From NCBI GenBank assembly GCA_964630365.1, contig CAZVUP010000002.1:10188-74187 (forward strand): a stretch of 64,000 nt of DNA, in the 5' to 3' direction. The notes under the pieces were generated by a model that had not been told where the DNA came from, made no database searches, and was given only the letters and a program-made list of their open reading frames with translations. Position 1 is the first letter of the stretch; each line of letters starts with the position of its first letter. Positions 15,133-38,363 of this stretch are shown here, one piece after another. A program made the position numbers and the translations under genes. The DNA comes from an uncultured Muribaculaceae bacterium (GTDB taxonomy: Bacteria > Bacillota_I > Bacilli_A > RF39 > UBA660).

Positions 15133-15783
15133 TTATTTAAGAAAAAGTCTTACTTTACTGCCATCTTCTACTTTTTGAAAGGCAGCAGGTGCTTGTTCAA
15201 AAACTATTTCTCCTGAACCTTCAACAACAACTTCAAAATTACCTAATTCTTTTTTAGCCTCCTGAATACTTTTTCCAACTACATTGGGAACAATATATGT
15301 AACTTTATCATTCCATTCTAAATCTTTTTCTAGCCCATTATCTTGCTTTTCAATTTTTAATGCGTCAATTATATCCAACAAAATTCTTCTCGCAATTGGT
15401 GCAGTTGTATAACTAGATAACATGGCTGTATTCTTAGGATTATCAATAGCTAAATATAAAACTGCTTCCGGATCATTTGATGGAACTACAGCCATAAAAG
15501 ACATTATATAATTATTAACTAAATAATGACCATTTTCTTGTTTTTGAGCAGTACCAGTTTTACCACCTATTCTATAACCATCTATATAAGCACTTTTTCC
15601 TCCACCTTTAGCAACAACACTCTCAAGAGCATATCGCATAATTGCTGATGTTTTAGAACTGACAACTTTTCTCCTCAAAATTGTCTTATATTCTTTAACT
15701 ACTGTATTTGTATTATCGCTTATATCTTTAACAATATGAGGTTTATACAAATATCCTCCATTAACAACAGCCGATACAGCCAT
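15133..15783 (-). CDS. class B PBP (SpoVD-like), 3' portion of a gene split by an inserted element: KTG motif plus one PASTA domain
   Basis: AVSAVVNGGYLYKP and GGKTGTAQ transpeptidase motifs. C-terminal PASTA (VPNVVGKSIQEAKKELG). Upstream in frame: stop-TPLQQV-MAV. Confidence 0.8.
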   Translation of the reverse strand: MAVSAVVNGGYLYKPHIVKDISDNTNTVVKEYKTILRRKVVSSKTSAIMRYALESVVAKGGGKSAYIDGYRIGGKTGTAQKQENGHYLVNNYIMSFMAVVPSNDPEAVLYLAIDNPKNTAMLSSYTTAPIARRILLDIIDALKIEKQDNGLEKDLEWNDKVTYIVPNVVGKSIQEAKKELGNFEVVVEGSGEIVFEQAPAAFQKVEDGSKVRLFLK

Positions 15784-17428
15784 TACCTGTTGTAACGGGG
15801 TCTAATAAATGAAACTTTTTGCCTAAATTATCAGAAGTAGTATATACACTTTCTCCTGTCTTAATAAAAATATCCAATTTAATTTGTTTATCACTTTGTT
15901 TATGAACTATTATTCTATCTATTATCTCATTAAATATATCACTATAACATTTATCATCTTCTAAGCATTTTTCTAATGCATTCTTTATTTCACTAATTTT
16001 GTTTTCAATATTATTTTTATCTTTTTTATTACTTTTTAATTCATTCATTTTTGTTTGATAAATAGTTAAATCTTCATTAATTAAATCTACTTGCTTTTTG
16101 TAGTCTTCTTTAGATAAGTACTCTTCCATAACAAGTTCTAGTAGTTTATCTTTTTTATTATTTAAAACTATTATTTTAGATTCTAAATTTTTTATTTCTA
16201 TTTCATTATTATTAGTTTCTAAATAATTCTTACATTCGCTTAATATTTCATCAAAGATATTATTTCTTCTTTTAAATAGTATATTAAACACATCTTTAAA
16301 TACTTCATCCAATTCAAGTTCAAATACTCTAGGATTAGAACAACCTTTTAAACTTTCACGCCTATAAACTTGGCATTCCCATACAGGATTATTCTTTCTC
16401 TTACCAGCACTTGATCTGTGATATGTAAGATTATGACAGCCGCAATATATTTTTCCTGAATAAGTATATCTATTTTGAAATACTGCTTTATTAATAGTAC
16501 GATTGGTAAAACTATCTTGTCTCTCTTTTAATTTAACATTAGCTCGTTCCCATAATTCTTCAGATACTATTGGTGGAACATTATCATAGTCCTTATAAAC
16601 AATCCAATCAGATTCATTTAATCTTTTCTTTTGTTTAGTACGATAATCTAATACTTTTGATTTATGTCCACAATAATATCCTTTATATTTAGGATTTTCT
16701 ATAATTCTTGTAAGTATTGTTGTATCTATTCTTTTGCCAGTTTTACTTTTATAACCTAAACTATAAAGATATCTTGATACTTTAGATAATCCATCAGTAG
16801 TATTAGCATATCTATTAAATATTATTTTAATCATTTCTGCTTGTGCTTCATCTATTACTAATTTTCCTTTATCTTTTACATAACCATAAATATTAGAACA
16901 TCCTAACACTACACCATTATCAATACTTCTCTTCATCCCAAATGAAACTCTTTCAGAAAGTCTCCTAACTTCATCTTGAGCAATTGAAGACATCATTGTA
17001 AGTCTGAGTTCAGAATCAGGTAATATCGTATTAATATTATCATTTAAGAAATATACACCAACACCATTAGATAATAGTTCTTGTGTATAGATAATACTAT
17101 CTAGTGTACTTCTTGAAAATCTTGATATTTCTTTAGTTAAGATTAAATCAAACTTATGTTTTTTAGCGTCTTCAATCATTCTTAGAAATTCTTCACGTTT
17201 TTTAACTTGTGTTCCTGATATTCCTTCATCAATATATGAACCTATAAATTCCCAGTTAGGAACTTTACTAATATAATCATTAAAGAAAGATATTTGATTA
17301 GATAAAGAATGTAATTGCTCATCTTTATCAGTAGATACTCTTGCATAAAAACATACTTTCAAATTTAATTCTTGTAATGGAACACCTTTCATAATATTAT
17401 TCCTAACTGTATATAGGTCCATAATCAC
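15761..17428 (-). CDS. large serine recombinase (SpoIVCA/CisA/phage-integrase type)
   Basis: Resolvase N-domain with catalytic Ser context (FYARVSTDKDEQLHSLSNQ). Recombinase domain. Zn-ribbon (CGCHNLTYH...WECQVYRRESLKGC). C-terminal coiled coil. Its last 23 nt overlap the PBP 3' piece. Confidence 0.9.
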   Translation of the reverse strand: MIMDLYTVRNNIMKGVPLQELNLKVCFYARVSTDKDEQLHSLSNQISFFNDYISKVPNWEFIGSYIDEGISGTQVKKREEFLRMIEDAKKHKFDLILTKEISRFSRSTLDSIIYTQELLSNGVGVYFLNDNINTILPDSELRLTMMSSIAQDEVRRLSERVSFGMKRSIDNGVVLGCSNIYGYVKDKGKLVIDEAQAEMIKIIFNRYANTTDGLSKVSRYLYSLGYKSKTGKRIDTTILTRIIENPKYKGYYCGHKSKVLDYRTKQKKRLNESDWIVYKDYDNVPPIVSEELWERANVKLKERQDSFTNRTINKAVFQNRYTYSGKIYCGCHNLTYHRSSAGKRKNNPVWECQVYRRESLKGCSNPRVFELELDEVFKDVFNILFKRRNNIFDEILSECKNYLETNNNEIEIKNLESKIIVLNNKKDKLLELVMEEYLSKEDYKKQVDLINEDLTIYQTKMNELKSNKKDKNNIENKISEIKNALEKCLEDDKCYSDIFNEIIDRIIVHKQSDKQIKLDIFIKTGESVYTTSDNLGKKFHLLDPVTTGNGCIGCC

Positions 17429-17433
17429 ACCTC

Positions 17434-17640
17434 CTAAGTTAATAGTTTATAATTATTTAAATCATTTATATATTTATCATCAATTTTACTTTTTTCTATC
17501 TCAATTTTATTTAATAATTTATTAATACAAAAATTATACATTCCATCATCTATAATATTTCTTCCTTTTAAATATTCAAGTAATTTAATACTTGTTTCTA
17601 TTTCAATTATTCTAGATGGAACTTTATCAATACTCTCCAT
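17434..17640 (-). CDS. small hypothetical protein (68 aa) immediately upstream of and co-oriented with the recombinase
   Basis: ORF ends 6 nt before the recombinase start. No motif recognised. Confidence 0.35.
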   Translation of the reverse strand: MESIDKVPSRIIEIETSIKLLEYLKGRNIIDDGMYNFCINKLLNKIEIEKSKIDDKYINDLNNYKLLT

Positions 17641-17811: not shown

Positions 17812-18237
17812 TTAATATTTTATAATTTTTCTAGCTATTTCATAGCCATCAATATTATCAGGTAATAATTCATCATGTTCTAGTACTAAGAATAATTCTG
17901 CAATTACATCTTCCTTTTCTTTAAATGATAATCTTTCAAATATTCGTATCATCTTTTTATATTCTTTTGGATAAAGACGATAAAGATTATAATTATAGTT
18001 CCCATACTCATTAATCTCATTAACTAAATAAGGATAATCAATACTACTTGGATTAAATACTTCTATATCAATACTATCATCAAGTAAACTAGGATTAACC
18101 TCACTTAAACTATTAATTTGATCTCTATCCCATAAGTTAAAAACATAGCTAATAAATTTTAGTTTATTTTCTTTATCAAGTTCATTTATTTTTAAAACTA
18201 ATTCTTTTACTTCATTACTTGTATTTCTTAAATACAT
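17812..18237 (-). CDS. hypothetical protein (141 aa), element cargo
   Basis: ORF only. No motif recognised. Confidence 0.4.
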   Translation of the reverse strand: MYLRNTSNEVKELVLKINELDKENKLKFISYVFNLWDRDQINSLSEVNPSLLDDSIDIEVFNPSSIDYPYLVNEINEYGNYNYNLYRLYPKEYKKMIRIFERLSFKEKEDVIAELFLVLEHDELLPDNIDGYEIARKIIKY

Positions 18238-18480
18238 ATTAAAGGCACTCCTTCATCTTCAATTTAAGCCATTTTAAGAGACTTTATTTTTTATACTAAT
18301 AACCGATTAAGATTAATATCAAAGTCCCTTATTTCTTAAATTAAGTATCAACAAATTAAAATTTAGTTTTAATATTTATCACTTAAAAAAATAAATTTTG
18401 CAATAGTTTTTTTTAAATTTTTTTAATTTATTTTCTAATCTTATTACCATAATATTTTTCCTCCTTCCATTTTAAATTCA

Positions 18481-18678
18481 TTATCTTTTTTCATATCTTT
18501 CTATATAAGATCTATATCCTAGTTCTAATAAATAGATAAACATTTTATTCATACTAAAATTATTTTTAATTGCTAAAAGCTGTATTCTAGTTTTTAAATT
18601 ATTATCTATTCTTAGAGTGATTCTTTCAGTACATCTCATAAATTTTTTCCTCCATTCTTTAAAATATAGAGTAGCCAC
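18481..18678 (-). CDS. putative ribbon-helix-helix (CopG/Arc-like) DNA-binding protein
   Basis: 65 aa. RITLRIDNNLKTRIQLLAIKNNFSMNKMFIYLLELGY fits a beta-strand plus two-helix RHH fold. GTG start lies inside a copy of the repeated motif. Confidence 0.4.
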   Translation of the reverse strand: MATLYFKEWRKKFMRCTERITLRIDNNLKTRIQLLAIKNNFSMNKMFIYLLELGYRSYIERYEKR

Positions 18679-18930
18679 TTTTCACTTTTTTTAGGTATTT
18701 TTTAGGTAAAAAGACTTGCATTTTTTTAATGGGCATAAGGAGAATGCACCACAAACTTATATTTATCTTATAAAATAAAGCAAATATAGTGGTGTCATTA
18801 CTATTTTTGCACTTGCAAAAATGACTACTTTTATAGTAGTAAGTGGCTACTCATATACAAACCATCCTTTTATACCAACAAAAAAAAGTGGCTACTCTTT
18901 CTCTTAAAAGTGCCCACTCATGACTATTTC
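18667..18930. repeat. four copies of a 12-13 bp motif AAGTGGCTACTC (one inverted at the RHH gene start, three direct upstream)
   Basis: Copies at 18671-18686 (minus), 18846-18860, 18888-18902 and a variant AAGTGCCCACTC at 18912-18926. Confidence 0.55.
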
Positions 18931-19247
18931 ATTAAAAATATGTGCTTCCAATACTTTTTAATTAATAAAACCATCTCCCTCCAATGAAAAAAAGAGAAGA
19001 TTATAGTTCTTCTCCATATAATTTTTTCATATCATACACTATTATAACTATTCACAAACACAAGTCAAGCTCATTTTGTGTCCAATTCATGTCATACTAT
19101 GTACAATTTATGTCGCAAAAAAATGCATGTTTTCTTCACAATTCTTGCATATTTTACTATATTATACTACTTGACAATATGAAGTCAAGCCGATTTTGGT
19201 CTGGATTTGGACTTATTTGATCCGTTTTTGGTATGATTTGTGTTTTG

Positions 19248-21038
19248 TTAATTTTCATCATAATTTTTTTCAATAATAATGTCATCAATTTCTTTCTTAT
19301 GTGAACTTGAATAATTATTTGTCTGTAAGTCAATATAGAATTCATTATCTTTCATAAGTTCATTATGAGTACCTTGTCCAACAATATTACCTTTATTTAA
19401 AACAATTATTTTATCAGCAATCTTCATTACATCTTTTTTGTGAGTTATAATTATTATTGTATGATCTAATTTTAAATTTTCAAAAATATCTTTAATTTTT
19501 TCAACTAACAAGGTATCTAATGAACTTGTAACCTCATCAAAGATTAATATTTCAGCTTTTGATAATAGTGTCCTTGCTATTGCTAGTAATTGTTTTTGTC
19601 CTCCACTAAAGTTTGTAGCATTCTCTGTTAAAATAGTATTATATCCTTTTGGTAAACTCATTATATAATCATGAATACCAACTCTTTTACAAGCTTCAAT
19701 TTGATGCTCTATATTTGAATCTATTAGAGATAAATTTCTTTTAATGCTCATATTAAATATAAATGGAGATTGATTAACTCCAACTACATTAGTAGAGTAT
19801 ACATCTTTTGAATAATCATATAAATTTTCTCCATCTATTAGAATTTGACCATCATCTATTTTATATTTTCTGAGAATCAAATTTGTAATAGTTGTTTTAC
19901 CAGAGCCACTATGACCAACAAGTGCAGTAATTTTATTTGGTTCAGCAACAAAACTAATGTTTTCTATATTTCCTTTATTTTTAGATTTATAAGAAAAATT
20001 CACATTTTTAAATTCAACTAATCCATCAATATAATCATTGTCATTCATTCCAAAAGTTATTTGTTGTTTGCTTGAATAATTTAATATATTATTAATTCTT
20101 GTTATAGAAATAGACCATTCTCTAATTTGTCTTGAATATCCCATGAGATCATTTGTATTAGACATTATATTTTCAAAATATGTAATTAATAGTATTAACA
20201 TATTTACTTCATATCTACCTTTTAATACAAAAAACACTAATACTAAATATAATAATACTTTACCAAAATGTATTATAAATGGTAATAAACTTGATCTAAT
20301 ATTAACATATTTTCTCTTTGACATATATTGGTCAGACCATCTATTAGCTATTATATAAAAATTATTTTTTATCTTATCATAAATATTAAAAACTTTAATT
20401 TCACCTAATCCATTTAATATTTGTGACAAATTATCAGTTAGTTTATCTCTATATTTTTGTTGGCCTCTTAAATATTTTGTGCTCATTATATTACAATAAT
20501 CAAAAGACTTTAAATATAAATATTCTAATATCAAAACAAAAATACCAATATAAATATTTGTTTTTAAAAAGATAAATATCATTATAATAACTTTAACAAA
20601 AACAACAATTATTTCACAAACATTATCAATCATTTCAGATAAATTAGCAGTATCAGTGTTTACAGTATTTAAAATTGTTCCCTTAGATAATTTATCTGAA
20701 AACTCTGTGTCGTAGGTAAATACTTTATCTACAATTTTCTCTCTTAAATTTTTATAACTATACTTAAAATTATGAGAATATGAAACATAATTCAGATACC
20801 AGAATAAATTATATGCAATATATGTAATAGCCAACAAGCCTATATTCATATATGTTGCACTTGCATTACCATTAGTTACCTGATAAATAATATTGGAAGT
20901 AAATACTGGAATTAATAAACTAGATAGGTGTGCCATTATAGAACCGAAGAATAATAAAAATATCCATTTTTTAGTACCTTTAACTAACTTAAAAAAATCT
21001 CTTATTATTTTTATATTATCTTTTATCATAGTTACCAC
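19248..21038 (-). CDS. ABC transporter, fused permease/ATP-binding half-transporter (exporter type)
   Basis: N-terminal 6-TM domain. Walker A GHSGSGKTT, signature LSGGQKQLLAIARTL, Walker B ILIFDEVTSSLD. Confidence 0.85.
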   Translation of the reverse strand: MVTMIKDNIKIIRDFFKLVKGTKKWIFLLFFGSIMAHLSSLLIPVFTSNIIYQVTNGNASATYMNIGLLAITYIAYNLFWYLNYVSYSHNFKYSYKNLREKIVDKVFTYDTEFSDKLSKGTILNTVNTDTANLSEMIDNVCEIIVVFVKVIIMIFIFLKTNIYIGIFVLILEYLYLKSFDYCNIMSTKYLRGQQKYRDKLTDNLSQILNGLGEIKVFNIYDKIKNNFYIIANRWSDQYMSKRKYVNIRSSLLPFIIHFGKVLLYLVLVFFVLKGRYEVNMLILLITYFENIMSNTNDLMGYSRQIREWSISITRINNILNYSSKQQITFGMNDNDYIDGLVEFKNVNFSYKSKNKGNIENISFVAEPNKITALVGHSGSGKTTITNLILRKYKIDDGQILIDGENLYDYSKDVYSTNVVGVNQSPFIFNMSIKRNLSLIDSNIEHQIEACKRVGIHDYIMSLPKGYNTILTENATNFSGGQKQLLAIARTLLSKAEILIFDEVTSSLDTLLVEKIKDIFENLKLDHTIIIITHKKDVMKIADKIIVLNKGNIVGQGTHNELMKDNEFYIDLQTNNYSSSHKKEIDDIIIEKNYDEN

Positions 21039-21048
21039 ATCCTAACTT

Positions 21049-21900
21049 TTATACTCCAACTAATTCAGATTCTAATATACTAATTATTTCTTTTATTGCA
21101 TTAATTGTATCTTCAAATTTAACCCCTTTTGCATATAAATTTTTTGAAACATATTCATTCCATAAATTATTCATGTTATTATCATCAATCAAATCATTAA
21201 TAACTTCATTAAATTGTTCTATATCAATATTTGTTTCTCTTCTTTTAAAAGTATTATTAATTGCTTTAATCAAGTTATTTTTATTTAATTCATTCATCTT
21301 TATATTGATTAATATATAGACATCATAAAAATCCTTTAATCTGGTATTTAATAAACCTATAGTAACAATAGTTTGAAATTTTTCTGCTAGTACTGTCTCA
21401 AGTGTATATGACATTATAGGTATTTTTTTATTCTCAAAAATAGAATTATAATTATATTTCATCTCTTTTGGTGTAATAACATCTCCTGTTGTTAATTCAA
21501 CAGTAATATAGGTTTTATTATTATCTAACTTAGATAATATATTTAATCTAAAACCTCCATATTCATCTTCTAATCTAATATCTTTAATAGAAACAACTTG
21601 AAATGATACACCATCATCAATATCTATATTAAGTATTTCATTAAATACTTTTTCTACATCGTTTTTTGTAAGAGGGATACCCTTTAAAGTTGCATCCATA
21701 TCTTTAGTAGTTCTTTCATCATCTCCAATAATAGAAGTAAGTAATAATCCACCTTTTAATATTATTTGCCCTCTATAATTACTTATAGATATTCTTTCTA
21801 AAATTCTTTCAAAGTAAAATAATTGATAAAATTTTTGTGAAATATCACTATTACCATGTGCTTTTTTAGATATGATGTTTTTTAATTTGTCAGAATTCAT
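21049..21900 (-). CDS. AbiEii/AbiGii-type nucleotidyltransferase toxin (DUF1814)
   Basis: N-terminal FYFERILERISISNYRGQIILKGGLLL matches the AbiEii family N-terminus. 283 aa. Confidence 0.7.
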   Translation of the reverse strand: MNSDKLKNIISKKAHGNSDISQKFYQLFYFERILERISISNYRGQIILKGGLLLTSIIGDDERTTKDMDATLKGIPLTKNDVEKVFNEILNIDIDDGVSFQVVSIKDIRLEDEYGGFRLNILSKLDNNKTYITVELTTGDVITPKEMKYNYNSIFENKKIPIMSYTLETVLAEKFQTIVTIGLLNTRLKDFYDVYILINIKMNELNKNNLIKAINNTFKRRETNIDIEQFNEVINDLIDDNNMNNLWNEYVSKNLYAKGVKFEDTINAIKEIISILESELVGV

Positions 21901-22511
21901 TAAAGTAACACCTCCATATATTCAAGAACTTTTTTATCAATATTTAATTTTTTTGCATATTTCATTAGTTTTAATAAATTTTTATCTTTTCTTTCGGCAT
22001 ACCATTTTAATGCTTTTGTAAAAATCTCTTTATCCATATGATTTCTATATTTAACTATATCACAAATAGTTCTTTCTAAATCATAAGTTCTAAGTTTCAT
22101 TCCAAAAGGAGATTCAACAGTAGTTAAACCTAGGTCTAAAAACTCTTTTTTTACATAATGTAATTGAACATTTTTATCCTTACTTAAACTACCACTATAT
22201 CCAACTGGTACAGTCATATCAAAATAAAGTGGTGTTCTATCAGATAAATCATAAAAATAAAGCGCTGTAGAATGAGAAAAAACACAGTTTTTAGATTTTA
22301 ATTGATATTTATAATAATCATCACAAAAAGAATTAGTAATTGCATAATATCCTCTTGTAATTCTTTCTAATTTATTTTGTTCAACTAATCTTGTTAATTC
22401 AATAGTATTAATATTTGCATCCTTAACTTGTTTTGTTGTCACATATCCGTTATTTTCATTTGCAATTTTAATAATTTTCTCAGCATTAGTCATATTATCA
22501 CTTTCCTTCAT
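21900..22511 (-). CDS. AbiEi-type antitoxin/transcriptional regulator
   Basis: N-terminal winged-helix-like block (YVTTKQVKDANINTIELTRLVEQNKLERITRGYY). Start overlaps the stop of the AbiEii gene. Confidence 0.65.
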   Translation of the reverse strand: MKESDNMTNAEKIIKIANENNGYVTTKQVKDANINTIELTRLVEQNKLERITRGYYAITNSFCDDYYKYQLKSKNCVFSHSTALYFYDLSDRTPLYFDMTVPVGYSGSLSKDKNVQLHYVKKEFLDLGLTTVESPFGMKLRTYDLERTICDIVKYRNHMDKEIFTKALKWYAERKDKNLLKLMKYAKKLNIDKKVLEYMEVLL

Positions 22512-23135
22512 TTTAATTTTATCATTTATTTAAAACTAAGTAAATGTATTTTGTTGCTTTTATACTTATTTTTTTATTTTTTTGCGTTTTTTTACAACAT
22601 TATATATAAACAAAAAAGCCAACTTGTCTTGTCAGCTTTTCTGTCAAACATGCATTTATTTATAAATAATGCATCATTCATAAATAAATGTTTACACCTT
22701 TGTAAGCTTTGACATGCTTACACTCACTACTTACTGCTTGAATAATATTTAGTGGCAAAATGAGCTTAATACTCAACAATATCCCATTCCCCATAATCCT
22801 ATCTTAAGTTTTGTAACAATAAATCGTTACATAGCGCTAAAATTACATTTAATGGTTGTTAACTAATCATTTAATACTAAGGGTGTACCACCAAAGGTAA
22901 AATCGCTTTTAACACGACATCACCTCCTAATTTTCGTCATTTTCAAGATAAAATATATACAAGTATACACTTTATCCATCTAACGACAACTAAATTATAT
23001 CATAAATCCCAGTTTTTACCAAGTAAATAAAAGGAAAAAGTCAAATTTTTATGAATAAATTATAATTAAATTCAACATCATACTTTTTCATATATTTACT
23101 AGTAATTCCTATAGTTATAGTAAAGGTATCATTTA

Positions 23136-24392
23136 TTAGACAGTAAGGTGAATTGGTGTAACACTAACTCCCTGTCCAAAAGCACTAGTAGCAAGTTCAA
23201 CATTTCCAACCCTATTTAAAGGAAATAAAATACCACTTCCTTCACCATTTAAATCAATACCTGTCTTTTCACCAAAACCAAATTTATTAATATAAGAAAA
23301 AAGTCTTTCTTTACCCAAAAGTTGCCCTATTCTGACAAAACCAGGATTACAAGAATTTTGTAATACTTGAAGAAAAGTCTGATCACCATGTCCTCCTGCC
23401 TTCCAACATTTTAAAATACTACCATCTACGTTTACTTTACCCGAATCATAAAAATGATCATTAAAAATATCAATAACGCCTTCTTCAACAGCTGAAGCCA
23501 TTGTAACCACTTTAAAAGTACTTCCTGGCTCATAAGATGCCCAAATAGGTAAATTTCTACTAAGAGTTGCACTATCATAATCTTTATAATTATTTGCATC
23601 AAAATCAGGTGTAGAACTCATTCCTAGTATTTCACCATTTTTAGGATTAACTACAATCGCTAAAGCCATATCTGGTTGAAACATATCAACAATATTATCC
23701 ATCTCGCGCTCTAAAGATTTTTGTATATTAATATCTATTGTTAAATTAATATTCATCCCACTTGTAGGGGCAACATAAACATCAGTCATATTAATCTTAT
23801 TTCCATGGGCATCAGCAAAATACTTTATTGCTCCATTTTTACCAGTCAAATACTTATCATATTGTAGTTCTAATCCAGCTAATCCTTGATTATCGATACC
23901 AACATACCCTAATGAATGAGAAAGTAAATCTTTATATGGATAATTTCTTTTAGCTTCTTTTACTAAATAAACACCTTCTAAGTTTAATTTATCAATTCTA
24001 TCAGCAATATCATAAGATAATCTTCTCCCTTCAGGATGAACTCTTTCTATTGAAACTTTTTTCATAACATGCTTTTTCATTTCATCATAACTAACATTAA
24101 GAATCTTAGAAAGCTCAGTAATAGCTTTTTTCTTTTCCTTAATTTGATTTGGTATCAACACTAAAGATGTTGTCGTCAAATTATCAGCAAGAACATTACC
24201 ATTTCTATCAAGTATTTTCCCTCTGTCTGCTTCAATTTCTAAATTTCTACTCCATAAGTCTTTAGCTAAATTATTTAACTTTTTATATTGAAAAAACTGA
24301 ATATAAAAAACTTTAAATATTATTAAAATAAATAATAGTAACATAATTAAAAATAAAACTTTAATACGTCTATCTATTCCTTTTTTAAACAT
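23136..24392 (-). CDS. class B PBP (SpoVD-like), 5' portion of the gene split by the inserted element: TM anchor, dimerisation domain, SxxK and SxN motifs
   Basis: MFKKGIDRRIKVLFLIMLLLF TM helix. STFK (SxxK) and SCN (SxN) transpeptidase motifs. Ends GQGVSVTPIHLTV-stop, exactly where PBPs continue with TPLQ...AVSAV. Confidence 0.85.
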   Translation of the reverse strand: MFKKGIDRRIKVLFLIMLLLFILIIFKVFYIQFFQYKKLNNLAKDLWSRNLEIEADRGKILDRNGNVLADNLTTTSLVLIPNQIKEKKKAITELSKILNVSYDEMKKHVMKKVSIERVHPEGRRLSYDIADRIDKLNLEGVYLVKEAKRNYPYKDLLSHSLGYVGIDNQGLAGLELQYDKYLTGKNGAIKYFADAHGNKINMTDVYVAPTSGMNINLTIDINIQKSLEREMDNIVDMFQPDMALAIVVNPKNGEILGMSSTPDFDANNYKDYDSATLSRNLPIWASYEPGSTFKVVTMASAVEEGVIDIFNDHFYDSGKVNVDGSILKCWKAGGHGDQTFLQVLQNSCNPGFVRIGQLLGKERLFSYINKFGFGEKTGIDLNGEGSGILFPLNRVGNVELATSAFGQGVSVTPIHLTV

Positions 24393-35668: not shown

Positions 35669-36229
35669 TTATACTTTTATTTTAGAAATTATTCCCAACT
35701 TGTAATTAAATGTCTTTTTAGAAATAACACCAGTAGATGGATTATAATAAACAACTATTTTTACTTCTAACTTGCCATCAGGTTCAATAACTTTACCACT
35801 AACATCATCAAGTTTTATTGAAACTGGAGAAATAAGTTTTTTAAAATAATTATCAGTATAGTCAGGACTAGTCATTAAAGTAACCATTTCAATTGGAACT
35901 GTTCCTTCATTTTTAATAACAGCAATATAAGTTATTTCATCTCTAGGAGCATTTAATGTAAAATTCATATCCAATAGTTGACCTGATTCATCTATTTTAA
36001 AAGAACTTGTAGGCTCGACTTCTGACCCCTTTACAGAAGATGACTTCATAACCTCTGAGAAAATAACTTCATAATTACAACTTTTATTTTTCTCTTTTTG
36101 GAGCTGTACTGCTACAACACTAAATCCAATACCTAAACAAACAAGAGTAAAACAAAGAATAATTATAATACAATTTCTAATATTAATTCTTTTTTTCATA
36201 AAAATCACCTTCTTTTTATTGTTCAACAC
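35669..36229 (-). CDS. hypothetical secreted/anchored protein (186 aa)
   Basis: N-terminal signal anchor and a beta-strand-rich mature region. Its start overlaps the pbpB stop. Confidence 0.45.
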   Translation of the reverse strand: MLNNKKKVIFMKKRINIRNCIIIILCFTLVCLGIGFSVVAVQLQKEKNKSCNYEVIFSEVMKSSSVKGSEVEPTSSFKIDESGQLLDMNFTLNAPRDEITYIAVIKNEGTVPIEMVTLMTSPDYTDNYFKKLISPVSIKLDDVSGKVIEPDGKLEVKIVVYYNPSTGVISKKTFNYKLGIISKIKV

Positions 36230-38363
36230 TAAATTTTGGTGCTAATTTTAAATGTATTTCCATACCATCACCAATTGCTGTTCCTTCAGCAATTGACTGT
36301 TCATAAACATAGCCTGTTCCTTCCATGGTCACCTTAAGTCCTATTTTTTGTAAAATATCTTTAGCAATTTTTCCAGATATTCCATTAACATTAGGAACCA
36401 AAATATTAGTATCATTTGTTACTAAATACACAACCTCATTTGTTGTTATTGTATCATTAACTTTTTGAATTTGATTAATTACTTTATTACCATTTCCAAT
36501 AAACACATATCTGATACCCATACTATCAAGTAATACTCTTGCAGCATCAACTTTTTTATTAATTAAATTAGGCATTTTATATTCCTTAACTTCTACAGTA
36601 GAACTATTGCTATCAGTATTACCATAATACTTTGAAACATTATTAACTATATCTTTAACAGCATTGCTAACAGGCTTCTGACTACCACCACTTGGTCTCT
36701 TTACTGAAGCATATATTATAATTTGAGGATTACTCTTAGGATAAATCCCTGAAAAAGATGAAATAATATCCTCTTTACCTGATAGATATCCCCCACCTCG
36801 TTCATTAGCAATTTGCGCTGTACCTGTCTTTCCAATTAATTCTCCACTATCAATTCTATAACCACTACCAGTATTACCTACACCATTAACACAATCATCC
36901 ATTAATTGAAACATTTTAACTACTGTATTAGTTGAGGCAACTCTCTCTATCTCTTCTCTTCCTTTTTCCAGAACAATTTCTCCAGTAGAAGAATCTACTA
37001 TTTTAGATACTAAATAAGGTTCTAATAACATTCCATCATTAGTAAGAGGCGTCATAGCTTTCACATTTTGAATAGGTGTTGTAGTTATACCTTGACCAAA
37101 TCCAGCATTATATATTTCTGTTTCATATTTAAATTCCAAATTACCCTTATTTTCACTTGGAAGTTCAATACCTGTTCTTCTACCAAAGCCCAGCCTTCTA
37201 AAATACTGTCTTAACATAATACTAGACATATGTCTATTGATCATATTAATAACCCCAACATTACTACTCATCGCATATCCCTTATCAAAAGAAATTACAC
37301 CCCAACCATTTCTATTCCAATCACCAATTTCTGTACCATCAGCAGTAGTATAGACACCTGACTTATATGTTTCATTTCCATTATAAACTCCATTTTCCAT
37401 AGCAGCCATATAAGTAAAAGTTTTCATTGTACTACCTGGTTCATAAGGAGAAGAAACCATTAAATCTAAATAATTTGTAATATCTCTAACATTCGGATCA
37501 AAAGAAGGATGAGTTGCTGTAGCAAGAATTGCTCCTGTCTTAGCATCCATAATAGTAATATGAAACCATTCCCAATCATAACTATAATCAGCATCAGTAA
37601 TTGCTTGTTCAACAAAAAATTGAATACTAGAATTAAGTGTTAAATAAATATCTTTACCTTGAACTGCATCTTTAGTAATAACTGGTGTATTAGCAATTCT
37701 ATATCCTTTTAAGTCTTTTTGATAAGTAGTATAACCATCTTCTCCCTTTAAAATATCATTATATTGCTTTTCTATTCCCATCTCACCAACAATTGACTCT
37801 TCATCATTACCAGTAGTATAGCCAATAGTATATGAAGCAAAATTACCTTTTGGATAATATCTTTTAAAACTTTCAATAAATCCAAGACCCGGTAAATTAA
37901 GATCTTCTATTTGTTTTTTAGTAATTTCATTTAGTCCTTTACCTTTTGTTCCAAATTCAGTTTGATAAACATTTTCTTTATTTAAATATTTTAAAATAGC
38001 ATCTTTTTCCATTCCTAAAATAGGTGCTAATTTTTCTGCTGTTTCTTCTTTATTTACAACATGCTGAGGTTTTTTTTCATTTGTCGTTCTCTTCGGATCT
38101 AAAAAAGCAATTAATTTATAGGAAGCAACATTTTGAGCTAACAAATCACCATCAGCCGAGTAAATAGCCCCCCTATTAGCCGAAATTACATCTGTCTTTG
38201 TCGTTCTTTGACTTGCTAAAGTACCAAGATCAATTCCATCTATTTTTCTAGACATTCCTAATTGAACTACTCTTCCTATCATTAGGCAAAATAAAAGAAG
38301 AGAACACACTATAAATACTTTAGAATATTTAATATTATTTTTTCTCTTCTTTCGTTTTTTCAA
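36216..38363 (-). CDS. pbpB: class B penicillin-binding protein 2B (division transpeptidase) with two C-terminal PASTA domains
   Basis: SxxK (STMKTFT), SSN and KTGTA motifs. Two PASTA repeats. 715 aa. Follows ftsL. Confidence 0.9.
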   Translation of the reverse strand: MKKRKKRKNNIKYSKVFIVCSLLLFCLMIGRVVQLGMSRKIDGIDLGTLASQRTTKTDVISANRGAIYSADGDLLAQNVASYKLIAFLDPKRTTNEKKPQHVVNKEETAEKLAPILGMEKDAILKYLNKENVYQTEFGTKGKGLNEITKKQIEDLNLPGLGFIESFKRYYPKGNFASYTIGYTTGNDEESIVGEMGIEKQYNDILKGEDGYTTYQKDLKGYRIANTPVITKDAVQGKDIYLTLNSSIQFFVEQAITDADYSYDWEWFHITIMDAKTGAILATATHPSFDPNVRDITNYLDLMVSSPYEPGSTMKTFTYMAAMENGVYNGNETYKSGVYTTADGTEIGDWNRNGWGVISFDKGYAMSSNVGVINMINRHMSSIMLRQYFRRLGFGRRTGIELPSENKGNLEFKYETEIYNAGFGQGITTTPIQNVKAMTPLTNDGMLLEPYLVSKIVDSSTGEIVLEKGREEIERVASTNTVVKMFQLMDDCVNGVGNTGSGYRIDSGELIGKTGTAQIANERGGGYLSGKEDIISSFSGIYPKSNPQIIIYASVKRPSGGSQKPVSNAVKDIVNNVSKYYGNTDSNSSTVEVKEYKMPNLINKKVDAARVLLDSMGIRYVFIGNGNKVINQIQKVNDTITTNEVVYLVTNDTNILVPNVNGISGKIAKDILQKIGLKVTMEGTGYVYEQSIAEGTAIGDGMEIHLKLAPKFSVEQ

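Follow-up and report, generated by a model that had tools for sequence, protein, structure and literature searches.

What is the function of the repeat-rich, gene-free spacer that lies upstream of a small ribbon-helix-helix (RHH)-like gene in contig CAZVUP010000002.1? The spacer belongs to an island of ~7.35 kb (~15.79 to 23.14 kb of the 64-kb stretch analyzed here, hereafter the window), which splits a spoVD-like penicillin-binding protein (PBP) gene. The original prediction took the spacer for an autoregulated operator array or an iteron-type origin. An origin-type array of putative protein sites with a small RHH-like protein is indeed present, but the comparative evidence favors an origin of transfer (oriT). 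We propose, with a probability of about 75%, that positions 18669-18949 are an oriT homologous to that of conjugative elements of gut Bacillota, carried by an island without transfer genes that would hitchhike without a relaxase of its own. We read the region as an oriT because the same architecture is found directly upstream of the relaxosome genes in conjugative elements, because the region persists in islands without the RHH gene, and because an inverted repeat (IR) is followed by a nick-like motif of the MOBP type.

The region is conserved in more than 100 fetched loci of two kinds, conjugative elements (type A) and serine-recombinase islands (type B). Type A has the gene order VirB4-like ATPase, M23 peptidase, ~270-bp spacer, RHH protein, a 128-135-aa protein, a 110-aa protein with an RHH-like N-terminus (RHH2), and relaxase, with a coupling protein farther away. 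In type B, variable cargo precedes a ~600-bp gene-free spacer, which is followed by the RHH, 109-aa, 141-aa, and 68-aa proteins, the serine recombinase, the C-terminal PBP fragment, mraY, and spoVE. Subtypes of type B carry the genes for the RHH and 109-aa proteins, for the 109-aa protein only, for the RHH protein only (this island and L033), or for neither (L084). The present island comprises, all on the minus strand (the gene strand), AbiEi, AbiEii, the ABC transporter, the spacer, the RHH gene, a 23-codon remnant, the genes for the 141-aa and 68-aa proteins, and the serine recombinase. No relaxase or type IV secretion system (T4SS) gene was found among the identified island genes, and tblastn with relaxase and VirB4 queries from the conjugative elements, the putative helpers, gave no match in the window's locus. 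Across positions 18669-18949, identity is 80-83% (or up to 90%) with islands that have recombinases only 44-45% identical to the one encoded here, and 58-73% with conjugative elements; the identity of the flanking DNA (~54%) is below these values.

Scanning one genome per species for the 21-nt core of the region, TTTTTGCAAGTGCAAAAATAG, yielded at least 80 loci from uncultured Bacilli, 'Tenericutes', Erysipelotrichaceae, and Clostridia. The 80 loci were classified by tblastn; ~35 are type A, and ~35 are type B without relaxase or T4SS genes. The core lies 180-200 nt upstream of the RHH gene and downstream of the VirB4 and M23 peptidase genes in ~35 loci. The type-A relaxases of the core-scan loci are 45-76% identical to the L014 relaxase. 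Helper relaxases have the HUH block HTHIHLA and match the Pfam Relaxase profile (PF03432) with 26.4 bits, above the cut-off of 24.6. Their scores against Pfam MobL (17.8 bits, cut-off 28.5), NCBIfam MobP2 (32.8-33.9 bits, cut-off 200), and NCBIfam MobP3 (42.7 bits, cut-off 150) are below the respective cut-offs. One metagenome-assembled genome (Lapin-030 bin39) harbors the island L029 together with the conjugative element L031, and the two have the same variant of the 12-mer described below. Two core copies (L070 and L078) are also present on one chromosome, OZ007025.1.

Three exact copies of the 12-mer AAGTGGCTACTC (S2, S3, and the inverted S4; Table 1) and a fourth copy with two mismatches, AAGTGCCCACTC (S1), are located within 18669-18919, and there is no further copy in the 64 kb. 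The earlier count of four copies, three direct and one inverted, thus holds with the restriction that S1 is inexact. On the gene strand S1 reads GAGTGGGCACTT, and at its offset the relatives have GAGTGGTCACTT (islands) or GTAGCCACTTT (conjugative elements). Dinucleotide-preserving shuffles of the window gave 0 exact matches. When up to two mismatches were allowed, four matches compared with 2.1 expected in the window, a count that is not significant alone; the significance of the array is carried by the clustering and the three exact copies. S4 and S2 together form 25-nt inverted arms (18658-18682 / 18884-18908). Relative to the core, the sites are found at -96/-74, -30, and +142 (inverted) in islands and conjugative elements, including RHH-less islands, and these positions are kept in more than 60 unique loci. 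The offset of -30 (S3) occurs in nearly all loci, in islands and conjugative elements alike, and the site at +142 (S4) is found in both contexts independently of the downstream gene. The offsets from the ATG codon of the RHH gene (-258, -213, and -41) are also kept in relatives. A few lineages carry AGTGATGCACTT, GGTAGCCATTTT, ACTGGCACTT, or TCGCCACTT at the 12-mer offsets. About a dozen islands without the RHH gene keep both the 12-mer sites and the core, and in them the same GTGGCTACTC precedes a different gene. The sites therefore appear to be cis-acting for a factor that can come in trans.

On the gene strand, the region reads GGAAGCACATATTTTTAATG, three direct repeats RGTAGCCACTT, IR1, IR2, 7 nt, TTATGCCC, an A/T-rich stretch, the inverted 12-mer, and the ribosome-binding site (RBS). 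The core is exact in every locus derived from protein searches that reaches it and in at least 80 species-representative genomes. The arm sequence of IR1, the hairpin inside the core, is that of the IR at the mapped nick of plasmid pLS20 (PMC5313138). In the family, IR2 consists of GACACCAC, 35-45 variable nt, and GTGGTGTC. Its alleles GACACCA/TGGTGTC and TGCCACC/GGTGGCA represent a compensatory double change across lineages, and in L057 IR2 is extended to 14 perfect bp. In all but one of the 69 unique loci (68 of 69), the octamer following IR2 keeps a constant offset of +81 to +84, and there it occurs as TTATGCCC (54 loci), TTATGCTC (10), ATATCCTG (3), or TTATCCTG (1).

The nick consensus of MOBP systems, (C/T)ATCCTG(C/T), adjoins an IR (PMC3772185). 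A canonical (T/A)TATCCTG octamer is present in 4 of the 69 unique loci, and TTATGCCC or TTATGCTC in 64. The octamer of this island is a variant of the MOBP nick motif, and the geometry of an IR followed by the motif is present. Based on this geometry, a nick is predicted on the minus strand after TTATGCCC, between 18731 and 18730; the second candidate position is on the other strand, beside the TTTTTGC hairpin. A blastn search of 18400-19300 against phage and plasmid collections gave no match, and a full-text literature search for the core sequences returned nothing relevant.

The 52-aa RHH-like protein encoded directly downstream is 70-78% identical to the product of the first gene of the type-A RHH-X-RHH-relaxase operons, and it has 86 homologue clusters, mostly from gut metagenomes. 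The original prediction had the inverted 12-mer form a GTG start codon and the first codons of a 65-aa product. The 12-mer does overlap GTG 18678, but this start is ruled out by ATG 18639 with its GGAGG and by the N-termini of the homologues; the product has 52 aa, and the 12-mer is untranslated. Most of the homologue sequences that were read begin with MRCTER, MIYTER, or similar at the position of ATG 18639, and their extra length is C-terminal. In profile searches, the protein matched a PHROG Arc-like repressor (E 6e-5) and, under the cut-off of 21, Pfam HicB (17.8 bits). A PDB profile search gave weak matches only, among them 2kel ('Uncharacterized protein 56B', E 0.16), which we take to be SvtR of SIRV1, an RHH protein. 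AlphaFold2 modelled the monomer as one helix; since such proteins are obligate dimers, this model is not informative. Judging from its homologues, the protein may be a relaxosome accessory protein that binds the 12-mers, and the second RHH protein of the helper is an equally good candidate for this binding. The RHH gene appears to have been acquired by the island along with the oriT.

In most relatives the RHH gene is followed by an intact gene for the 109-aa protein (L001 1812-2141), of which only a remnant is left here. The 109-aa protein resembles replication initiators of phages and plasmids (PHROG 4707, E 3e-24) and DnaD-like loaders (E 1e-14) in their N-terminal DNA-binding domain, but it covers only the first ~100 residues of these 300-400-aa proteins and is without the helicase-loading part. 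No convincing homology was found between the island 109-aa protein and the helper 128-aa protein. GACAYRAAWT direct repeats, which are kept upstream of the promoter in islands, could be binding sites of the island 109-aa protein.

We infer the following course of mobilization. The 12-mers would bind a relaxosome accessory protein, either the island's own RHH protein or the RHH proteins of the helper or both, and the DNA would be bent as a result. A conjugative element in the same cell would provide a MOBP-like relaxase in trans, which would recognize the inverted repeat and cut next to it. After excision, the island would leave the cell as a circle through the T4SS of the helper. Two predicted promoters of the distal spacer, P1 and P2, point through the oriT into the RHH-to-recombinase genes and may supply the transcription that otherwise comes from the long conjugation operon, with leader terminators presumably holding read-through low.

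Several observations weigh against the oriT reading. In pLS20, mapping placed the nick next to the TTTTTGC hairpin on the template strand, whereas the MOBP geometry predicts a nick on the gene strand after TTATGCCC. The pairwise alignment with the pLS20 oriT lacks significance on its own, with 8-54 of 300 shuffles scoring no worse, and the two DNA blocks shared with it, described below, stand in opposite order. Loci L014, L053, and L079 share the RHH beta-strand RTTLRID yet have different sites; there is no clean co-variation of this beta-strand with the 12-mer variant, and no concerted evolution of the site flanks was detected (0.44 vs 0.40). There is no helper element within the 64-kb window. 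The 80 genome loci were chosen by an exact core match, so the core conservation among them is by construction; it is not by construction in the type-A loci found through protein homology (L014-17 and L020-22; relaxases 69% identical), in which the core is also exact. In this copy, the right arm of IR2 is without one T (a 1-nt deletion), S1 is degenerate, and the neighboring 109-aa gene is deleted. With these defects and the weak P1 hairpin, this copy may be decaying and less active than its relatives.

The region might be only the promoter and operator of the RHH-to-recombinase operon, in which case the RHH protein would repress or loop its own promoter and set the excision frequency, with no role in transfer. 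Such an arrangement would suit the position of S4 (16 nt upstream of the RBS), the resemblance of the 52-aa protein to Arc-like repressors, and the strong promoters upstream, and RHH proteins of relaxosomes are generally known to act often as autorepressors too. However, the sites and the core are also found inside the long conjugation operon, directly upstream of the relaxosome genes, and the sites persist in the dozen or so RHH-less islands. A gap of 170-350 bp separates the promoters from the sites, and the invariant hairpin, the compensatory IR2, and the TATCCTG variants would be left unexplained. We consider this explanation unlikely; the RBS-proximal 12-mer could nevertheless have a secondary role in autoregulation of the RHH gene. 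The presence of direct repeats and the match of the 109-aa protein to a replication-initiator domain might instead indicate an iteron-type replication origin of the excised circle, served by this Rep-N-like protein. We regard it as very improbable, because the repeats remain where the 109-aa gene has been deleted (this island and L033) and where it is absent (L084 and all conjugative loci). The missing helicase-loading part, the irregular spacing of the repeats (22-45 bp apart, one inverted), which is unlike that of phased iterons, and the experimentally defined oriT function of the homologous pLS20 region argue in the same direction.

A structured non-coding RNA or attenuator made from P1 or P2, whose conserved hairpins would control the downstream genes as RNA structures, fits the direction of the promoters, the stable (z -3.5) and conserved leader hairpin, and the compensatory changes in IR2. 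These changes would be just as compatible with a DNA hairpin or a symmetric protein site, however, and the conserved elements are palindromes and 12-mers that resemble protein sites, one of them inverted. The core region is kept in conjugative elements without the promoters, and an Rfam search over 15-24 kb found no family at E <= 1. This RNA explanation, too, has only a slim chance of being correct. Chance repeats in AT-rich spacer DNA would be compatible with the count obtained at up to two mismatches, but they are refuted by the three exact copies (0 expected) and by the conserved positions. The oriT reading is thus the best explanation of the region, the features of which are compiled with those of its surroundings in Table 1.

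Table 1. Positions of the oriT-like region, its elements, and neighboring features in the window
Feature	Position	Strand	Description
oriT-like region	18669-18949	-	~281 bp; spacer part common with conjugative elements, from GGAAGCACATATTTTTAATG to the RBS-proximal 12-mer
S1, degenerate 12-mer	18908-18919	+	AAGTGCCCACTC
S2, exact 12-mer	18886-18897	+	~75 nt from the hairpin core
S3, exact 12-mer	18841-18852	+	30 nt from the hairpin core
S4, exact 12-mer, inverted	18669-18680	-	between the nick-like block and the RBS
21-nt core	18801-18821	-	TTTTTGCAAGTGCAAAAATAG; unique in the 64-kb window
Hairpin IR1	18804-18821	-	TTTTTGC-AAGT-GCAAAAA, inside the core
IR2	18746-18796	-	GACACCAC (18789-18796), variable ~36-nt spacer, GTGGTG-C (18746-18752)
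Nick-like octamer	18731-18738	-	TTATGCCC; 7 nt after IR2
RHH-like 52-aa protein	18481-18639	-	MRCTERITLRID...; ATG 18639, GGAGG 18649-18653, 9 nt upstream
Remnant of the 109-aa gene	18379-18450	-	23 codons, good RBS; rest removed by a ~330-bp deletion
Leader hairpin	18985-19015	-	GGAGAAGA-N7-TCTTCTCT and T-run, terminator-like; ~20-50 nt downstream of P2
Promoter P2	19041-19068	-	TTGACT-16-TATAAT; 11/12 consensus matches
Direct repeats	19084-19120	-	GACATAAATTG, GACATGAATTG; just upstream of the P2 -35 box
P1 unit	19116-19188	-	TTGACT-16-TATAAT (19161-19188), internal IR TTGAC-N7-GTCAA; degenerate hairpin and T-run (19116-19150)
Direct repeats	19190-19235	-	ACCAAAAACGG, ACCAAAATCGG; upstream of P1; two copies of TCGTAYCAAAAANGG in relatives
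ABC transporter gene	19248-21038	-	cargo
Large serine recombinase	15761-17428	-	Resolvase, Recombinase, and Zn_ribbon_recom domains

The distal half of the spacer (18985-19247) is specific to the islands. It consists of two paralogous units (P1 and P2), each with a sigma-A consensus promoter followed within ~50 nt by a hairpin and a T-run, and it contains a 59-nt tandem duplication (19020-19078 / 19140-19198, 71% identical). The islands have one or two such promoters of the form TTGACT-N7-TGTCAAG-N3-TATAAT with the internal inverted repeat TTGAC/GTCAA; direct repeats precede each promoter (GACAYRAAWT, or ACCAAAAACGG for P1), and the hairpin after it is of the purine/pyrimidine type. Among the island loci that extend far enough, P2 mostly stands at -234 to -247 relative to the core; in a few it is farther upstream. 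The P2 leader hairpin folds with -12.1 kcal/mol (z -3.5) and is kept in at least 20 islands, where changes affect one side of the stem and none is compensated on the other. The P1 hairpin is weak in this copy (z -0.46), and its stem has 9 bp in L001. The promoter and leader motifs are absent from all 20 conjugative loci, each searched within 8 kb. None of the small spacer open reading frames (MKKLYGEEL, a 16-aa frame after the terminator, and a 78-aa plus-strand frame) is conserved; they differ or are interrupted in relatives. The two units may make short RNAs.

The repeats that had been noted in this half are present. The pair at 19062 and 19181 belongs to the tandem duplication, and both the CAATTYATGTC pair (19084 and 19110) and the TTTGG-containing repeats (19190-19203 and 19222-19235) are direct repeats on the gene strand. 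The supposed TTGACA box at 19170, on the other hand, corresponds on the opposite strand to TGTCAAG, which lies between the -35 and -10 boxes of a minus-strand promoter. The ABC gene proposed to be divergent shares its strand with the RHH gene and has its end at the spacer; it is thus upstream and co-directional. The array has no connection with this gene, which is variable cargo and is replaced by other genes in relatives. One could imagine the island as a hitcher in two ways, with the oriT module, with or without the helper-derived RHH gene, used by the helper's machinery and an island-specific switch of consensus promoter, operator-like IR, and leader terminator sensing the helper, for example via a helper RHH protein or an antitermination factor. 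Excision from the spoVD-like gene would then be triggered only when transfer is possible, and it would at the same time restore a sporulation or peptidoglycan gene. We think this improbable.

The host gene is a class-B PBP gene with a PASTA domain, which is split into 23136-24392 and 15133-15783 and adjoins mraY and spoVE/ftsW. Positions 2-167 of the Pfam Transpeptidase profile are found in one fragment and positions 170-298 in the other. The PBP reading frame reads T-P-(I/L)-(H/Q) at both junctions, and the recombinase frame crosses the junction into the host gene. A literature search found no spoVD-intervening element. An intact 715-aa PBP2X/SpoVD-like paralogue is encoded at 36216-38363, 12 kb from the split gene. 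This paralogue is probably the division transpeptidase, so the split copy would be dispensable for growth.

The cargo includes an AbiEi/AbiEii pair (type IV toxin-antitoxin / abortive infection) at 21049-22511. At this end of the island, relatives carry ABC-F and APH genes, clusters of radical-SAM and glycosyltransferase genes, and NUDIX and Peptidase_S51 genes. A second gene-free stretch of ~620 bp (22512-23135) with short, unconvincing open reading frames lies between AbiEi and the N-terminal PBP fragment, and it may hold a recombination-site arm or regulatory DNA. The 68-aa (17434-17640) and 141-aa (17812-18237) proteins are kept beside the recombinase in spoVD-type islands and have no family match; either could be a recombination directionality factor. 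In the group of L012, L023, and L070, the 141-aa homologue is 30% identical and no 68-aa homologue was detected. These sister islands (L012 9907-12349, L023, and L070) carry the same oriT module with a recombinase only 44-45% identical to that of this island. The L012 recombinase gene abuts a Peptidase_S11 (D-Ala-D-Ala carboxypeptidase) gene, which suggests another peptidoglycan gene as a possible second target of insertion.

If the oriT reading is correct, it provides a testable oriT, with an invariant core of 21 nt, sites for accessory proteins, and a candidate nick, for a widespread and uncharacterized conjugative family in uncultured gut Bacilli, 'Tenericutes', and Clostridia. It would then aid the prediction of gene flow and the development of genetic tools for these gut organisms. 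Islands with defence-, resistance-, and surface-like cargo (AbiE, ABC-F with APH, and glycosyltransferases) could spread without transfer genes. Hitchhiking by oriT would further be linked to insertion into a spoVD-like gene, and the class of integrative elements known as iOriTs (discussed below) would extend to gut Bacillota and serine-recombinase islands.

In the Bacillus subtilis plasmid pLS20, a functional oriT of 362 bp has been delimited by experiment upstream of aux1(RHH)-aux2(RHH)-relaxase. Aux2 has been suggested to bind preferentially to three direct repeats in it, and nicking maps to the base of GGCTTTTTGCtgccGCAAAAAGCC (PMC5313138, PMC5675868). Both systems have the order oriT, small RHH gene(s), and relaxase inside a conjugation operon, three direct repeats 5' of the core, the inverted-repeat arm TTTTTGC-N4-GCAAAAA, and a block TGGTGyC..TTTCCCCTTATGCTC after a CACCA/TGGTG inverted repeat. 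The pLS20 oriT sequence contains TGGTGCCAGTTTCCCCTTATGCTC and CACCATgcaaATGGTGCCAGTTTCCCCTTATGCTC. In the first 50 kb of pLS20 (all but the last 15.8 kb), TTTTTGC-N4-GCAAAAA and TGGTG-N-CCTTATGC occur once each, both inside the oriT, and only this joint unique occurrence appears informative for the likeness to pLS20. There are also differences. The helper relaxases are remote relatives of the pLS20 relaxase (27% identity over 85 aa) and not MobL/MobP2 by score, whereas the pLS20 relaxase RelLS20 (MOBL/MobP2) itself scores 397.6 bits against NCBIfam MobP2. The RHH and RHH2 proteins have no detectable similarity to Aux1 and Aux2, the repeat sequence is TGTGCAT in pLS20 and GTAGCCACTT here, and the oriT described here is on a relaxase-less island. 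In pLS20 (L103 2540-2640), CACCATgcaaATGGTG-CCAGTTTCCCCTTATGCTC forms an inverted repeat with a nick-like block 54 nt upstream of the TTTTTGC IR at the published nick. The comparison raises the question of the functional weight of this IR and its CTTATGCTC block, 54 nt from the published nick.

The oriTs of MOBP systems (RP4 TraI, Ti-plasmid VirD2, and H. pylori Tfs4 VirD2) likewise have an IR immediately before a short nick motif (PMC3772185). Most members of the present family, including this island, have TTATGCCC or TTATGCTC in place of ATCCTG, and the nick is predicted here.

Sporulation genes are interrupted by intervening elements such as skin in sigK, SPbeta in spsM, and gin in gerE (PMC4191935, PMC5595907, PMC5025042). 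Here too, a serine-recombinase element interrupts a peptidoglycan gene that resembles a mother-cell sporulation gene in its position and profile matches, but the spoVD identity and the developmental excision of the split PBP gene are candidate properties. We know of no oriT on the skin, SPbeta, or gin elements.

Mimicry of a helper's oriT has precedents. Mobilizable genomic islands (MGIs) of Vibrio mimic the SXT oriT, and SmpO is the specificity-determining RHH protein of the pWBG749-family system. Staphylococcal plasmids carry oriT mimics matched to pWBG749-family conjugative plasmids (PMC8136818). As in our family, non-conjugative elements bear copies of the helper's oriT, and oriT subtypes differ; in contrast to it, the carriers are plasmids instead of islands, the mimics are without an RHH gene, and the relaxase family is another one.

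Integrative elements with an oriT and without relaxase or mating-pair genes, have recently been described under the name iOriTs and are widespread in six nosocomial species (Ares-Arroyo et al., bioRxiv 10.64898/2026.01.13.699239). This island resembles them as an integrase-delimited island with a conjugative-type oriT and no relaxase or T4SS, and as a member of a large family with variable cargo and defence genes near the oriT (AbiE here). Unlike the iOriTs of the six nosocomial species, the present family resides in uncultured gut Bacilli and Clostridia, uses a large serine recombinase, and is inserted in a peptidoglycan/sporulation gene. Many members, including this one, keep a helper-derived RHH gene, so that the likeness to the helper exceeds the oriT, and an island-specific promoter and leader-terminator module is located upstream of the oriT. 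The island would be a new member of the iOriT kind, and its particular features are the serine recombinase, the spoVD-like insertion, the uncultured gut Bacillota hosts, the RHH gene retained in many members, and the island-specific promoter-terminator leader.

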